Origin: Nanobdellota archaeon
Lineage (GTDB): Archaea > Nanobdellota > Nanobdellia > Woesearchaeales > JACPBV01
Length of the DNA stretch: 64,000 nucleotides
Assembly (NCBI GenBank): GCA_018813685.1
Contig: JAHJAV010000018.1
Location: 9,576-73,575, forward strand
Direction of reading: 5' to 3'
The notes under the pieces are model-generated. The model was given only the letters and a program-made list of their open reading frames with translations. It had not been told where the DNA came from and did no database searches. Shown here one piece after another: positions 411 to 44,619 of the stretch. How positions within the stretch are numbered: position 1 is the first letter of the stretch; every line of letters begins with the position of its first letter. The position numbers were made by a program, and so were the translations under genes.

Positions 411-1247
411 ATAGATTTAATTAAGGATTTAGTTGAACTATATAGAAAAACAGCTACAGAGATTCATGAAGATATCCTCAATATCCTAAAACAAGCAGAA
501 GAAATAGAAGAAGTATCAGCAAAAAACAACATAAAAGATCTTATAAAAAACGCAGAACTAGCAAAACAACTATCTAAACCAATCTGCCAGGATACTGGAA
601 CTCCGATTTTTTATATTCAACATGATAAAACATACTCTCAAAAAGAATTAAAAAAACAAATAATAGAAGCGACAAAGCTAGCAACAGAAAAAATACCATT
701 AAGGCCTAATGCAGTTGACATTAAAACAGATAAAAATACAGGTAACAACACTGGAAACTTTTTCCCAATAATCTATTTCGAAGAAATTAACAAAGGATTA
801 ATAATAGACCTAATGTTAAAAGGCGGTGGCTCAGAAAATGTTGGAATAACATACAGCCTTCCAAATAAAGATCTAGATGCTGGCAGGAATTTGGAGGGTG
901 TAAGGAAATGTGTTTTGGATGCTGTGTTTAAGGCGCAGGGAAAGGCGTGTCCCCCCTATGTTATTGGTGCTGCTATTGGCGGTTCTAAAGATGTTGTTGC
1001 TTGTTTGTCAAAGAAACAATTGTTAAGGAAACTAAATGATGTAAATGAGGATTCAGAATTGGATAGATTTGAGAAAGAGTTGAAAGAAGACCTAAATAAA
1101 TTAGGCATAGGGCCATTAGGATTAGGGGGAAAAACAACATGTTTAGCTGTAAAAATAGCAGAGTCATCAAGGCATCCAGCTTCTTATTTTGCAGATATAT
1201 CGTTCTGCTGCTGGGCATGCAGAAGGGGGCAATTAAAATATGACTGA
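411..1247 (+). CDS. class I fumarate hydratase (Fe-S hydro-lyase) alpha subunit
   Basis: ICQDTGTPIFYIQ motif and full-length alpha-subunit homology are in frame from about 399. There is no ATG/GTG/TTG between the in-frame stop at 378 and 813. ATA at 411 is preceded by an SD-like gaggggg (398-404) and would give the N-terminus MDLIKDLVELYRK. Confidence 0.7.
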   Translation: MDLIKDLVELYRKTATEIHEDILNILKQAEEIEEVSAKNNIKDLIKNAELAKQLSKPICQDTGTPIFYIQHDKTYSQKELKKQIIEATKLATEKIPLRPNAVDIKTDKNTGNNTGNFFPIIYFEEINKGLIIDLMLKGGGSENVGITYSLPNKDLDAGRNLEGVRKCVLDAVFKAQGKACPPYVIGAAIGGSKDVVACLSKKQLLRKLNDVNEDSELDRFEKELKEDLNKLGIGPLGLGGKTTCLAVKIAESSRHPASYFADISFCCWACRRGQLKYD

Positions 1248-1815
1248 GCACCATTTAACAATCCCATTAAAAGATGAGGATATTGAAAAATTAAAAATAA
1301 ATGATAAAGTTTACCTAACTGGGAATATTGTTACAGCTAGAGACAAAGCCCACCTTTACCTATTAAAGGAAGATCCTAATCTAGGCCTTAAAGGAGGAAC
1401 AATCTATCATTGCGGGCCTGTTGTAAAAAAACAAGATGGTAAATATGAAATAATCGCTGCCGGTCCTACAACCAGCATAAGAATGGATTTGTATGAATCA
1501 GATATTATTGAAAAATACGGGGTTAAAGCTGTTATTGGAAAGGGGGGCATGGGCAAGAGAACATTAGATGCTTTACAGAAATATAAGGCAGTTTATTTAT
1601 CAGCACTTGGTGGAGCTGCTGTGCTGCTTGCACAATCTATTGTTAAGGTTAAGGATGTTTTAAAATTAGAAGATTTTGGTGTTCCTGAAGCATTGTGGGT
1701 TTTAGAAGTTAAAGATTTTCCAGCTATCGTTACAATGGATGCTCATGGAGGCAGCCTTCATGAAAATATTCTAAAGAAATCTGAAAAAGAGCTAAAGAAA
1801 ATTATAGGGGGATAA
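1240..1815 (+). CDS. class I fumarate hydratase beta subunit
   Basis: LTGNIVTARDKAHLY and GGMGKRT motifs typical of the tartrate/fumarate hydro-lyase beta subunit. Overlaps the alpha-subunit stop (translational coupling). Confidence 0.8.
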   Translation: MTEHHLTIPLKDEDIEKLKINDKVYLTGNIVTARDKAHLYLLKEDPNLGLKGGTIYHCGPVVKKQDGKYEIIAAGPTTSIRMDLYESDIIEKYGVKAVIGKGGMGKRTLDALQKYKAVYLSALGGAAVLLAQSIVKVKDVLKLEDFGVPEALWVLEVKDFPAIVTMDAHGGSLHENILKKSEKELKKIIGG

Positions 1816-3226: not shown

Positions 3227-3424
3227 AATATGCATAGCATCTTCAAAATTCTTGACGGAAGCGGCAAAGGAGCTGCGTTCCCGTAGGGAGCACAGAAAAA
3301 GCCTTGCTTTTTCCTAGTTGCGCTCGGCTTTGCCTCGGCAAACCAACCCCTCGCGACGCTCGTCGATAATATTTGATTTATGGAATTTTGACCCTAGGAT
3401 GCTATGCACATACAGTTTTTAGAA
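3217..3424. repeat. GC-rich structured element A with 13-bp terminal inverted repeats and 11-bp flanking direct repeats
   Basis: DR agtttttagaa at 3217-3227 and 3414-3424; the first copy contains the malic enzyme stop codon. IR tatgcatagcatc (3228-3240) pairs with gatgctatgcaca (3398-3410). The GC-rich core has conserved hairpins shared with elements B and C. Confidence 0.55.
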
Positions 3425-17003: not shown

Positions 17004-18578
17004 TTAGTATTGTGCATGAATCCTGTTTCCTTTTTTATTTCTTTGGAAATTCAATGCTTTGTTCATGCCTTTTATCAATGCTATTGCTGATGCCATCATG
17101 ATATCTTCATTAACTGCTTCTGCCTTGAATATATTTCCTTTTTTGTCCTGGATCTTTATTGATACGTCTGCCAATGCATCTGTGCCGCCAGTGATCGCTT
17201 TAAGACCGTATTCTTTTAATGTGATTGAAGGGTCTATCATTGTGCGTATGGCATGACTAACAGCATCAACAGGACCGACTCCTTTACCAGTCCCTGTTTT
17301 CTTTTTTCCGTCGATGATCAAAGTTACTGCTGCTTCTGGCTGCATCTTGTTTCCTGTTGACACTTTTATCTCATCAAGTTTTATTATCTCCTCATCTTTT
17401 GAAAGTTCTCCTGCAATGTCTGTAGCTATTGCTATGATATCTTCCCGCATGACAACCTTTTGTTTATCAGCAAGCTCTTTTACTTTGATTATTACTTTTT
17501 CAACCTGTTCTTTAGTAAGATCATAACCCATCTCTTTTAAGGCGTTTTCTACTGCATGCTTTCCAGAGTGTTTTCCAATAACAAATGTTGTTCCTATCCA
17601 CCCTATCTCTTCTGGCTTCATTATCTCATAGGTCAACTTGTTCATCAACATACCATGCTGGTGTATGCCTGCTTCGTGGGCAAATGCATTAGATCCTACA
17701 ATTGCCTTGTTTCTCTGAACTGCAATTCCTGTCAATGATGAAACTAATTGTGATGTTTTGAAAATCTCTTTTGTGTTTATTCCGGTTGTTATATCTTTGA
17801 AAAAGTCCTTTCTTGTCTTTAAGTTCATCACTACTTCTTCTAAGCTGCAATTGCCTGCTCTTTCGCCGATGCCGTTTATAGTGCACTCTACCTGAGTTGC
17901 ACCGTTATTTACTGCTTCTAATGAGTTTGCTACAGCCAGGCCTAAGTCATTGTGGCAATGTATGCTTATGACTACTTTGTTTGATTTTATTATGTTATTT
18001 AGCTTTTCGAAAACATATTTTATTCTCTTTCCGAATTCTTCTGGCTCTGCATAGCCTACTGTGTCTGGGATGTTGATTGTGGTTGCTCCTGCTTCGATCA
18101 CTGCTTTGATTATATCACACATGTAGTCTAGGTCTGTTCTTGCAGAGTCTTCTGGGCTGAATTCAATGTCTTTGCACAATGATCTTGCGTGTTTTACTGC
18201 GTCTACTGCCATCTGCATGACTTCTTCTTTTGATTTTCTTAGCTTGTTGTCCATATGCACTTGTGAAGTTGCAATAAAGGTGTGAATTCTAGGTTTTTTT
18301 GAATATTTTACAGCTTCCCATGCCCTGTCAATATCTTCCTTTCTTGTTCTGGCTAATCCGCAGATTATTGGGCCTTTTATTTCTTTAGCGATTAATTTAA
18401 CAGATTCAAAATCACCTTCTGAGCTTATAGGGAAACCTGCTTCAATTACGTCAACTCCTAATTTAGCTAGCTGTTTAGCTACTATAATCTTCTCCTGCAT
18501 TGTCAAGGATGCTCCCGGAGACTGCTCGCCATCCCTTAATGTTGTGTCGAAAATGATTATTTTCTTCATGATGTTCAC
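17004..18578 (-). CDS. leuA: 2-isopropylmalate synthase (or citramalate synthase)
   Basis: IFDTTLRDGEQSPGASL plus HCHNDLGLAVAN, with a C-terminal regulatory domain. Confidence 0.85.
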   Translation of the reverse strand: MNIMKKIIIFDTTLRDGEQSPGASLTMQEKIIVAKQLAKLGVDVIEAGFPISSEGDFESVKLIAKEIKGPIICGLARTRKEDIDRAWEAVKYSKKPRIHTFIATSQVHMDNKLRKSKEEVMQMAVDAVKHARSLCKDIEFSPEDSARTDLDYMCDIIKAVIEAGATTINIPDTVGYAEPEEFGKRIKYVFEKLNNIIKSNKVVISIHCHNDLGLAVANSLEAVNNGATQVECTINGIGERAGNCSLEEVVMNLKTRKDFFKDITTGINTKEIFKTSQLVSSLTGIAVQRNKAIVGSNAFAHEAGIHQHGMLMNKLTYEIMKPEEIGWIGTTFVIGKHSGKHAVENALKEMGYDLTKEQVEKVIIKVKELADKQKVVMREDIIAIATDIAGELSKDEEIIKLDEIKVSTGNKMQPEAAVTLIIDGKKKTGTGKGVGPVDAVSHAIRTMIDPSITLKEYGLKAITGGTDALADVSIKIQDKKGNIFKAEAVNEDIMMASAIALIKGMNKALNFQRNKKGNRIHAQY

Positions 18579-18840
18579 CTTTTGTGTTTAGTTTTATAAA
18601 TCTTTCCTCTGCTTATTTTTATAGCATTATAAAAAGTAAAATTTTATCCGCTGGCCCTTAATTCCTGTTTAAAGAACTAGGGCAATCATAACACCAGAAC
18701 CAATAGAAGTAGAACTAACAAGAATGTAAATGATTTGAACGAGTTAGTTCGTTTCATAATAAGTTAGAATATGGATTTTATATTTAAAGGTTTGTTTTTT
18801 GTTTAGAGTTATAGTAAAAAATCCAAAATTAGTTTATATG

Positions 18841-19013
18841 AAAAACCCAACCACAACATAGGCTTAATGATAGTTTATTTGAAAAAATCCAGCCATCCAT
18901 GACGGCCTACGGACAAAACTTCGTTTTGCCCTACTCGCCACCCCGTAGGGGGCATCCCCCGGCTCGTCTGCGTCATGGCTGGATTTTTTCTCGCCATGTT
19001 GTTGGGTTTTTTA
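18841..19013. repeat. GC-rich structured element B inside a long nested inverted repeat
   Basis: Outer IR aaaaacccaaccacaacat / atgttgttgggttttt; inner IR aaaaaatccagccat(ccat)gacgg / cgtcatggctggatttttt. Core has a caaaac-UUCG-gttttg tetraloop hairpin and a cccc-gta-gggg hairpin. Its 5' and 3' modules match the ends of element A. Confidence 0.55.
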
Positions 19014-19112
19014 AAAATAGAAATGTCGGAAAAGCTTTGCTTTTCTGAGCATTTTAGTTTTTGCTTTGCAAAAACCAAAAGGTTTAAATAGTACCTAACC
19101 TTATCTAGGGTT

Positions 19113-19772
19113 ATGTTAACAAAAAATGTACTTTTATATGAAGAACCGATAAAGAGAATACTCGGAAAAGTAGAGTTAGAAACCATATATAAAAAAATTG
19201 AGGGAAAACAATTGAAACAGGTTGAGATGAACTATCTTTCAAGATCTATCCGCCCTAAATTGATTGCTGCAAGAATGATCTCACAAGAAAATATACTTGA
19301 AAGAATCAACAAAAGAACAAGAAGAGAACAATCTTTAATAGAATTTAACCTATCTAATTATGGATATGAGATGATTTCTATAAAACGCAAAAAGCATAAA
19401 AAGTTACCTATTGAAGAACTGATAGTTGAAATAATCATTAAGTATCCTTCGGCACGTTTTATAGAGGCTATACCTTTTTTGATTATAAAAAATAAAATTG
19501 GGGGATTTAAACTTCTTGAATTAGCCACCAGGTACGGAATCAAGAATAAGGTAGGATATTTAATTGAAACTGTATTTATGATAAGGCCAATTCCACAATT
19601 AAAGGGATTGCTAGATTATTTAATAAAGAATAAAGAAAATGAAATGTCCTTTCTTGTTGAGGGAGATGAGGAATTCCTTAGGAAAACTTCCCCTGAGAGG
19701 GTTAGGAAATGGAATCTGCTTGGAAGATTTTTTGATGAGGACTTTAAAAAACTTGCAAAGGTGTACCTATGA
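19113..19772 (+). CDS. hypothetical protein, upstream partner of a nucleotidyltransferase
   Basis: 219-aa ORF overlapping the next gene by 4 bp (ATGA). Confidence 0.4.
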   Translation: MLTKNVLLYEEPIKRILGKVELETIYKKIEGKQLKQVEMNYLSRSIRPKLIAARMISQENILERINKRTRREQSLIEFNLSNYGYEMISIKRKKHKKLPIEELIVEIIIKYPSARFIEAIPFLIIKNKIGGFKLLELATRYGIKNKVGYLIETVFMIRPIPQLKGLLDYLIKNKENEMSFLVEGDEEFLRKTSPERVRKWNLLGRFFDEDFKKLAKVYL

Positions 19773-28199: not shown

Positions 28200-28223
28200 T
28201 TTGTTTAGATTATGAATATTTTA

Positions 28224-28309
28224 TGCGAGGGACGGGATTCGAACCCGCGCAGGCACTAAGCCATACGGCCCTCGACCGTATCCGTTTGACCAGGCTCCGG
28301 CACCCTCGC
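28224..28309 (-). tRNA. tRNA-Leu (anticodon GAG), type II with long variable arm
   Basis: Minus-strand read: gcgaggg acceptor; anticodon stem tacgg/ccgta with loop tcGAGgg; T-arm gcggg-ttcgaat-cccgt; 86 nt. Confidence 0.85.
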
Positions 28310-28351
28310 AATGTTGAGACGCCATAAATTGGCTTTGCCAATTTAATGTCA

Positions 28352-33677: not shown

Positions 33678-34005
33678 TAGGCAGGGCTGGAATAAGCCAC
33701 CTTTTGTCAGATGATTTCCATCTGTCTTAGCATTTAACTAAGCGTTTTAAAAACTTGCACCGGTCAGGTCTCGCCGTTTCATCCATTCCTCTTAGAGCGT
33801 CTGTCGGTTAACTCAGTTACGTTGCCGTAACCTTCTCGACTTTCATCCTCCTAAAAGGGGGTCTCGTTTCTGTGCGGTTGCCGCACATTGCTGCACCTTC
33901 TTTATGAAGTGACCATAATAGCCAGAGGCTATTGGTGGGTGGACTTTCCTCAGTTCGTACTTACATTGCTGTAAGGAACCGTTAGCTAAGTACCTTCCCT
34001 GCCTA
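33678..34005 (-). ncRNA. rnpB: RNase P RNA
   Basis: Minus strand has GAGGAAAGUCCACC (CR-I / P4 5' strand, plus 33941-33951) and ACAAAAGGUGGCUUA (CR-V / P4 3' strand, plus 33691-33704); they pair with the conserved bulged U. P1 terminal helix aggcaggg/ccctgcct. GC-rich island about 328 nt. Confidence 0.7.
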
Positions 34006-44477: not shown

Positions 44478-44619
44478 GTTAATGCTAAAGAATAGTGGAA
44501 AATATAAAAAGGTTTCTATTGAAAGAGAAAGACAAAAGTAAATTATGATTTGTTTGTCTGTCAAAAACCTTAGGGTTTTTGAGCATGCTCAGAAACCTTT
44601 GATTTCTGACATTTCTATA

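Follow-up and report, generated by a model that had tools for sequence, protein, structure and literature searches.

What is the strongly folding palindrome that stands at 18841-19013, upstream of leuA, in this DNA of a Nanobdellota archaeon? We refer to it as Element B, and by the window we mean the whole stretch of 64,000 nucleotides that was analysed. The earlier note had offered two answers: a structured RNA, because of a UUCG tetraloop seen at the tip of the hairpin, and a MITE, because of the long terminal inverted repeats. Both are weighed here, together with several others, against the fold of the element, a family of related repeats and the genes around the locus.

Fold and parts of Element B

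From the letters alone, it is clear that Element B (about 172 nt, non-coding and intergenic) is a nested inverted repeat, with the outer and inner arms located where the earlier note had placed them (Table 1). Folding calculations for RNA and single-stranded DNA bore out its claim of one long imperfect hairpin, the stability being far beyond that of shuffled sequence (z about −6 to −8). When the 186-nt stretch was folded as + strand RNA, one long imperfect hairpin of −72.3 kcal/mol was obtained (z −7.7); the − strand RNA gave −75.1 kcal/mol (z −6.0) and the single-stranded DNA a z of −7.3, and none of these energies was matched by any of 200 shuffles. The inner arms are complementary at 16/16 positions, and the A6 run at 18883-18888, the mirror of the T6 run in the 3′ inner arm, reads as T6 on the − strand. 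In 60-nt stretches, the GC content of the window is highest in the interior that they enclose (68% versus 36% overall).

Two small hairpins had been claimed at the tip. The CCCC-GTA-GGGG hairpin is indeed present, and so is the stem of the CAAAAC/GTTTTG hairpin, but the UUCG tetraloop on top of the latter is not. C18914-C18919 pair with G18923-G18928, leaving UUC as a triloop and turning the G of 'UUCG' into the closing base, and a cUUCGg loop would need a C-U closing pair. The C-G closing pair around UUCG by which a cUUCGg tetraloop is recognized is therefore missing, since C18919 pairs with G18923.

The 5′ arms of Element B sit in a 16-nt direct repeat, one copy of which leads into the outer arm and the other into the inner arm, and this makes the outer arms resemble a diverged duplicate of the inner ones. 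Judged from these letters, the nesting looks like the product of a duplicated arm pair.

Table 1 Positions of Element B and its parts, of Element A and of the partner insertion sequence (window coordinates unless a locus is given)
Feature	Position	Strand	Remarks
Element B, outer 5′ arm AAAAACCCAACCACAACAT	18841-18859		3-nt bulge (CAC) relative to partner arm
Element B, outer 3′ arm ATGTTGTTGGGTTTTT	18997-19012		
Element B, inner 5′ arm GAAAAAATCCAGCCAT	18881-18896		A-tract part resembles family CAAAATYC stem strand (alignment comparison)
Element B, inner 3′ arm ATGGCTGGATTTTTTC	18975-18990		T6 run on + strand (18983-18988)
Element B, arm pairs by letters			GAAAAAATCCAGCCAT..ATGGCTGGATTTTTTC and AAAAACCCAAC..GTTGGGTTTTT
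Element B, interior	18901-18968	+	65% GC versus 36% GC of the genome; closed by GACGG/CTCGTC
Element B, hairpin CAAAAC-UUC-GUUUUG	18914-18928	+	triloop
Element B, hairpin CCCC-GTA-GGGG	18941-18951		present
Element B, core module GCC-A-CCCC-GUA-GGGGG-CAU-CCCCC-GGC	18937-18963	+	only part with demonstrable family homology
Element B, 16-nt direct repeat, copy 1 TAGTTTATaTGAAAAA (= TAGTTTATATGAAAAA)	18830-18845	+	leads into outer arm
Element B, 16-nt direct repeat, copy 2 TAGTTTATtTGAAAAA (= TAGTTTATTTGAAAAA)	18871-18886	+	leads into inner arm
Element A	3228-3412	+	full MITE family member; terminal repeats, 8-bp target duplication AGTTTTTA, 54-nt core hairpin insertion
Autonomous single-ORF IS66-family insertion sequence, ~1545 bp	L062:355-1899; L097:9798-11342; L098:4758-6301; L100:19-1562		ends GTATGTGCATAG

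The IS66-derived MITE family and its link to Element B

The window also holds a full member of a MITE family, Element A, which scores 104 bits (E 2e-25) against R1, a covariance model built from 20 family copies with neither Element A nor Element B among them. Element A fills the spacer between a malic-enzyme gene and a metallo-beta-lactamase-fold gene, and the first ATG of the listed ORF downstream falls within its terminal repeat. An A-like element was also found in a relative (L005), where a nested-arm relative of Element A at 1165-1375 (minus strand) is flanked by a 10-bp direct repeat, CCGTCAATGG.

Further family loci, 37 in all, were collected by a metagenome scan with the 3′ motif of Element A, which they share. 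In these loci nhmmer gave about 45 non-overlapping matches, corresponding to roughly 35 distinct sequences, sometimes with two per contig. A canonical copy is ~135 nt long and reads GTATGTGCATAGCATC-TTCAAAATTC-...-GGAGCTGCGTTCCCGTAGGGAGCAACCCCTCGCAACGCTCGTC-...-GGAATTTTGACCTTAGG-GATGCTATGCACATAC. Its terminal repeat is GTATGTGCATAGC, 12-16 nt in length, and an IS66-family insertion sequence of ~1.5 kb has this repeat as its end. Eleven copies could be compared on both flanks, and the 8-bp duplications flanking them agree at 8/8 positions in three and at 7/8 in three. The 1545-bp element of L062 has the same 12-nt ends as the MITE and encodes a 442-aa DDE_Tnp_IS66 protein (E 9e-40), and the full IS66-type copies in L097, L098 and L100 are bordered by perfect 8-bp duplications of the TTTGAAGA type (for example, TTTGAGAA and TTTTAAAA). 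The transposase has 2026 homologues at E ≤1e-20, from Nanoarchaeota or Aenigmatarchaeota wherever the source is named; this insertion sequence is very abundant, and its usual assembly is a contig of 1.5-3 kb.

At the left end of the IS66-type element, the boxes CTTCAAATTTC and AATTTTGACC adjoin, each forming one half of a small hairpin; the MITE has a core of ~75 nt between them. Extra hairpin modules are inserted in the core of Element A and of the copies in L057, L060, L081 and L087. The shared IS66-type ends, the 8-bp duplications and these insertions together indicate that the family is an IS66-mobilised MITE with a modular interior. Relative to neighbouring genes its copies are oriented either way, 13 in the same direction and 9 in the opposite one, and the outer arms covary among the copies in L005, L071, L083 and L058. 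A palindromic module, GTCAAAAAC..GTTTTTGAGCATGCTCAGAAAC..GTTTCTGACATTTCT, lies at 44553-44613 of the window and is also inserted inside the MITE copies of L057 and L060; its letters suggest a second tiny repeat, which may land in spacers and inside other repeats.

In the literature that we searched, no description of this MITE family or of its IS66 partner in DPANN archaea was found. The analysis links the family to a single-ORF insertion sequence of the IS66 type, very abundant in Nanoarchaeota and Aenigmatarchaeota. This link should help annotation, because repeats of this kind break up assemblies and give rise to spurious ORFs.

To follow the pairing across copies, we have aligned 20 family members with MAFFT and derived their common structure with RNAalifold, in which 95.7% of cells are paired. 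Compensatory double changes were seen in 15/33 pairs, among them each of the four pairs in interior helix 4, and the covariation score was 0.318, as against 0.128 in shuffles and ≤0.07 with slid partners. Compensatory changes of this kind mean that pairing in the family stems is maintained and not merely inherited. The alifold energies are similar on both strands; G-U pairs outnumber A-C mismatches on the + strand by 53 to 7, a count biased by the way in which the structure was derived. Since the strands fold alike and the copies occur in either orientation, the selected structure is assignable to neither RNA nor DNA. The strong covariation of the interior stems hints at a function beyond transposition, which the MITE-based reading of Element B given below does not account for, and this covarying core poses a modest puzzle, as it could serve transposition, the host or an RNA.

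How, then, is Element B connected with this family? Run over the 64-kb window, R1 recognized only Element A and, within Element B, the 18937-18963 segment, which it aligned to the central motif of the family (16.7 bits, E 0.025). Element B and the copy in L071 agree at 21/21 nt of the core (blastn against 1 Mb, E 3e-4), and a loose regular expression for the core, run on ~0.5 Mb of archaeal DNA, matched only family elements and Element B. The central core gcgUcCCCGUAgGGgGCAaCCCCuCgc is present in Element B in the + orientation, and CCCGTAGGG occurs twice in 64 kb, once in each of Elements A and B and both times on the + strand, with 0.01 occurrences expected by chance. The two elements share in addition TGACGG, CCCGTAGGGRGCA, GCTCGTC and the A-tract/T-tract stem. 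A helix of the type GA(C/U)G..CGUC closes the interior of Element B, with GACGG at 18901 and CTCGTC at 18963, and the GACGG/CTCGTC closing helix is found in Element A and in canonical family members as well. A search of the window and the six relatives described below for GACGG with [CT]TCGTC 30-140 nt downstream returned three matches, namely Elements A and B, both GC-rich, and one in L003 with 41% GC. The architecture of Element B, with its nested outer arms, recurs in the L005/L058/L071/L083 subfamily, and small A/U-rich hairpins in the style of its triloop hairpin recur as inserted modules in family members. Its A/T stem, GAAAAAATCC/GGATTTTTTC, occupies an analogous position, with a sequence differing from those of the family boxes CTTCAAAATYC and GRATTTTGACCYTAGG.

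The homology is demonstrable over only about 27-33 nt. Full-length alignment of Element B to the family failed, both with nhmmer (E 1.2) and with R2, a trimmed covariance model (E 0.79). Element B has no family terminal repeat GTATGTGCATAGC, no TTTTGACCTTAGG box (GACCTTAGG box) and no GACCYTAGG box, and its arms match neither the ends of the IS66-type element nor anything else fetched. An exhaustive search of boundary pairs for a target duplication gave only low-complexity A/T matches and no 8-bp duplication. The earlier note had proposed a search for further copies; no second B-type copy turned up in the window, in fetched loci amounting to ~1.1 Mb, or in the collections of viral contigs, plasmids and phages. 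Its suggestion of a MITE has therefore held in part: Element B is small (below about 600 bp), non-coding and provided with terminal inverted repeats, in two nested pairs, and its core is homologous to a true MITE family, but it has no target duplication and no partner with matching ends, and the searches just listed gave no second copy.

Locus and origin of Element B

The spacer that houses Element B extends over about 543 nt, from the leuA ATG at 18569 to the ATG of the next gene at 19113. Element B lies ~50 nt past the leuA TATA box (18780-18790, minus strand) and ~70 nt ahead of the TATA box of a 219-aa gene (about 19087). The relatives of its LeuA, 69-83% identical, come from MAGs labelled Woesearchaeota or Nanoarchaeia. 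In 6/6 of these relatives the leuA leader and its TATA box are kept, and the sequence past the TATA box differs and holds no Element B. This absence at the leuA-upstream position in six relatives argues for a lineage-specific insertion between two divergent promoters. Orthologues of the genes that neighbour leuA upstream in the six relatives were sought in the window and none was found.

The only ORF over Element B (18875-19186, minus strand, 103 aa) had been called spurious in the earlier note, and fairly so: it has no relative among 5.8 billion proteins and is unannotated in a 99.99% identical NCBI contig, labelled Nanoarchaeota. We have also rejected a small protein encoded by Elements A and B through a shared-frame translation, because the stem changes are compensatory, not codon-wise, and the 103-aa ORF has no homologues.

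On the leuA side of the spacer, a leader at 18569-18790 (minus strand) carries a TATA box (18790-18780) and then a 23-aa ORF (18757-18686; MKRTNSFKSFTFLLVLLLLVLVL and stop), the stop codon of which abuts a conserved hairpin (about 18683-18650) and a U-rich tract. The hairpin is followed by a further TATA-like box, by GGTGA as Shine-Dalgarno sequence and by the leuA ATG. An equivalent ORF of 20-23 aa ending in Leu/Val codons, together with the same hairpin, is present in 6/6 relatives (7/7 loci in all), and both leader stems show some compensatory changes across the seven loci; the leader has no Rfam match. From this comparison it looks like a candidate bacterial-type leader-peptide attenuator of the leu/ilv operon in a DPANN archaeon, the alternative being that the ORF encodes a small hydrophobic peptide. 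Leader-peptide attenuation of a leu/ilv operon was not found described for archaea in our literature search. Outside the six archaeal relatives, the closest proteins to LeuA (17004-18569; loci L008-L053), at about 50-55%, are those of Omnitrophota, Planctomycetia and Desulfuromonadales, and this similarity to bacterial proteins suggests a bacterial source for the leu/ilv cluster and its leader.

On the other side, a conserved promoter and a palindromic operator-like sequence, TTTAAATATAACATAACCTTTAT.GAGGTTACA (about 19085-19112), stand directly upstream of the 218/219-aa gene, and the same promoter/operator-like sequence precedes its homologues in L094, L095, L101 and L105. The gene pairs with a DUF6036 nucleotidyltransferase gene, and the pair is widespread in Woesearchaeota (184 homologues). 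A tie between Element B and this pair was considered and rejected, as the short upstream regions of the homologues in other genomes carry the promoter/operator and no B-like element. Two A/T-flanked hairpins, GGAAAAGC-TTT-GCTTTTCT and GTTTTTGC-TTT-GCAAAAAC, occupy 19026-19080, between Element B and the 219-aa promoter; one of them is flagged as terminator-like, and both resemble in style the hairpin modules inside the MITEs.

Taken together, the explanation to which we give slightly better than even chances is that Element B is a lineage-specific palindromic insertion, a diverged and probably immobile relative of the IS66-mobilised MITE family in Woesearchaeota/Nanoarchaeota-type archaea. We do not count it among the canonical members but read it as a diverged or decayed relative, or as belonging to a sister subfamily as yet unsampled; because it shows no target duplication and neither a second copy nor an autonomous partner with matching ends was found, it is better called a relative or relic than a proven MITE.

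Its origin may be pictured as follows. The family uses the ends of the insertion sequence together with a subterminal A/T hairpin of the latter, the loop of which holds the GC-rich structured core of ~75 nt, and this core can take up further small hairpin modules. The family transposes with IS66-type ends and 8-bp duplications, and Element B, which shares its core, would have arrived by a similar event, its recognizable ends having been lost or never present. Its long hairpin would then be a by-product of palindrome-within-palindrome construction and not an RNA gene, and the insertion would sit in a neutral gap between the divergent leuA promoter and that of the 219-aa gene. With a strong hairpin and then a T6 run on each strand, Element B would probably stop stray transcription both ways, and it may in this manner insulate the two promoters. 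On this view, an eye-catching 'RNA-like' hairpin belongs to the mobile repeats of DPANN archaea, a group with poorly catalogued mobile elements, and those who scan genomes should not take every GC-rich palindrome in an AT-rich archaeal spacer for an RNA gene.

Three other explanations are each unlikely. One, which we consider doubtful, sees in Element B the gene of a small structured RNA that is transcribed independently and has the conserved core as its functional centre. A + strand transcript of ~85 nt would begin near G18901, directed by the TATA-like TTTATTTG at 18875, and stop at the T6 run of 18983-18988. Its − strand counterpart, ~105 nt in length, would be initiated from TTTTTAAAAAA at 19012-19022 and reach as far as the mirror T6. 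As far as can be read from the sequence, the distances between TATA-like boxes and T6 runs are suitable on either strand, an interior of 65% GC in a genome of 36% GC is what one expects of stable RNAs in AT-rich archaea, the interior helices of the related family show compensatory changes (in 15/33 pairs, as above), and extra sequence is tolerated at loop positions as it is in structured RNAs. Against this, there is no Rfam match even at E 10, Element B is missing at the locus in six relatives, and its two strands fold equally well and give no strand signal; the family copies, for their part, have target duplications, transposon ends and a mixed orientation to neighbouring genes, and the canonical ones have no TATA box of their own. 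With the UUCG tetraloop gone as well, the structured-RNA reading that the earlier note had based on it loses its ground.

A second possibility, no less tentative, is that the 27-nt GC-rich core itself (C4-GNA-G4/5-N3/4-C4/5 with a short closing helix) is a self-contained selected module, either a structured RNA or a protein-binding hairpin, that is carried by the palindrome, with Element B as a domesticated copy. This would explain both the stem covariation across diverged copies and the survival of the core in Element B. If so, the core would be carried by different palindromic carriers or insert into their loops, and Element B might act, for example, as an sRNA or as an insulator between two promoters.

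It is similarly improbable that Element B, whatever its origin, is kept because it works as a two-way terminator or insulator between the leuA and 219-aa/DUF6036 promoters. Oligo-T tracts make archaeal RNA polymerase terminate, and some palindromic repeats of bacteria, REP, ERIC and Correia elements among them, can serve as terminators. In Element B, the inner stem of 16 perfect base pairs leads into a T6 run whichever strand is read, a site at 18907-18891 (− strand), with GGATTTTTTC next to it downstream, is picked out as terminator-like by a consensus scan, and the leuA TATA box (18780-18790) and that of the 219-aa gene (about 19087) flank the element. Divergent promoters, though, have no obvious need for a terminator between them, and six relatives manage without one. 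Such an activity would in any case be compatible with, and not exclusive of, the reading of Element B as a relative of the MITE family.

Very improbable is the reading of Element B as an attC-like recombination site of an integron, bordering an island of gene cassettes: ACCCAAC (18845-18851) and GTTGGGT (19001-19007) in the outer arms do fit the R″/R′ box consensus of attC sites, RYYYAAC/GTTRRRY, they are succeeded, as attC boxes are, by a bulge and another short helix, and the adjoining 5-kb island holds toxin-antitoxin-type small genes, but no integrase domain was found among the island genes or in the window region examined, no comparable palindrome follows the other island genes (gaps of 10-240 nt), Element B at ~172 nt exceeds the typical 57-141 bp of attC sites, the fit to the box consensus may plausibly be fortuitous, a degenerate 7-nt motif would by our own estimate fall by chance in an arm of 16-19 nt in about 2% of cases, and the core of Element B is common to a transposon-type family.

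Known RNAs were rejected as well. SRP RNA, 5S rRNA, tRNA or split tRNA, and box C/D or H/ACA RNA fit neither in motifs and size nor in neighbours, and the same holds for bulge-helix-bulge processing stems, retron RNA and omega-RNA with their neighbouring genes. Searching Elements A and B against Rfam 15, archaeal SRP RNA included, gave nothing at the gathering score and only chance-level matches at E up to 10, in agreement with the earlier note, which had seen no SRP helix-8 motifs; ARAGORN found no tRNA at Element B. A triple helix of C-G-C runs is ruled out by topology, since the purine run lies between two pyrimidine runs. Elsewhere in the window, ARAGORN reported a tRNA-Leu(GAG) at 28223-28310 (minus strand), which the Rfam tRNA model did not report at the gathering score, and an archaeal RNase P RNA was located at 33684-33999 (minus strand, 124.5 bits).

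Comparison with known systems

MITEs and mosaic palindromic repeats as such are well known. Closest to Element B is the IS66-derived DPANN MITE family described here (Element A; L056-L092), with which it has in common the central motif C4-GNA-G4/5-N3/4-C4/5 in the same orientation, the GACGG/CTCGTC helix, an A-tract/T-tract stem round a GC-rich interior, small UUC-loop hairpin modules, an intergenic position and the nested outer arms of the L005/L058/L071/L083 copies. It departs from the family in having neither GTATGTGCATAGC nor the TTTTGACCTTAGG box nor an 8-bp duplication of its target, in aligning over ~30 nt and in being known from a single copy.

With SRP RNA and cUUCGg hairpins, Element B shares a long imperfect hairpin with GC-rich tips; in contrast to them, it has no SRP RNA motifs, no Rfam match and no UUCG tetraloop, and it is far shorter than archaeal SRP RNA (about 300 nt).

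The archaeal MITEs of Sulfolobus, Methanocaldococcus and haloarchaea are like the DPANN family in being small, in having terminal inverted repeats and in needing a resident insertion sequence, but they belong to other hosts and depend on another insertion-sequence family. To our knowledge, a conserved covarying GC-rich core has not been described for them.

In general design, Element B and the family also recall the bacterial mosaic repeats, namely BIME/REP, the pneumococcal BOX/RUP and the Neisseria Correia elements, which are likewise short, non-coding, intergenic, strongly folding and assembled from reusable hairpin modules. Such bacterial repeats are sometimes mobilised by a transposase acting in trans and sometimes serve as terminators. 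There is no sequence relationship between the two groups, and the host here is an archaeon of the DPANN type; the partner, too, is of another kind, being an IS66-type transposase here and a RAYT or an IS30/IS630-type enzyme in the bacterial systems.
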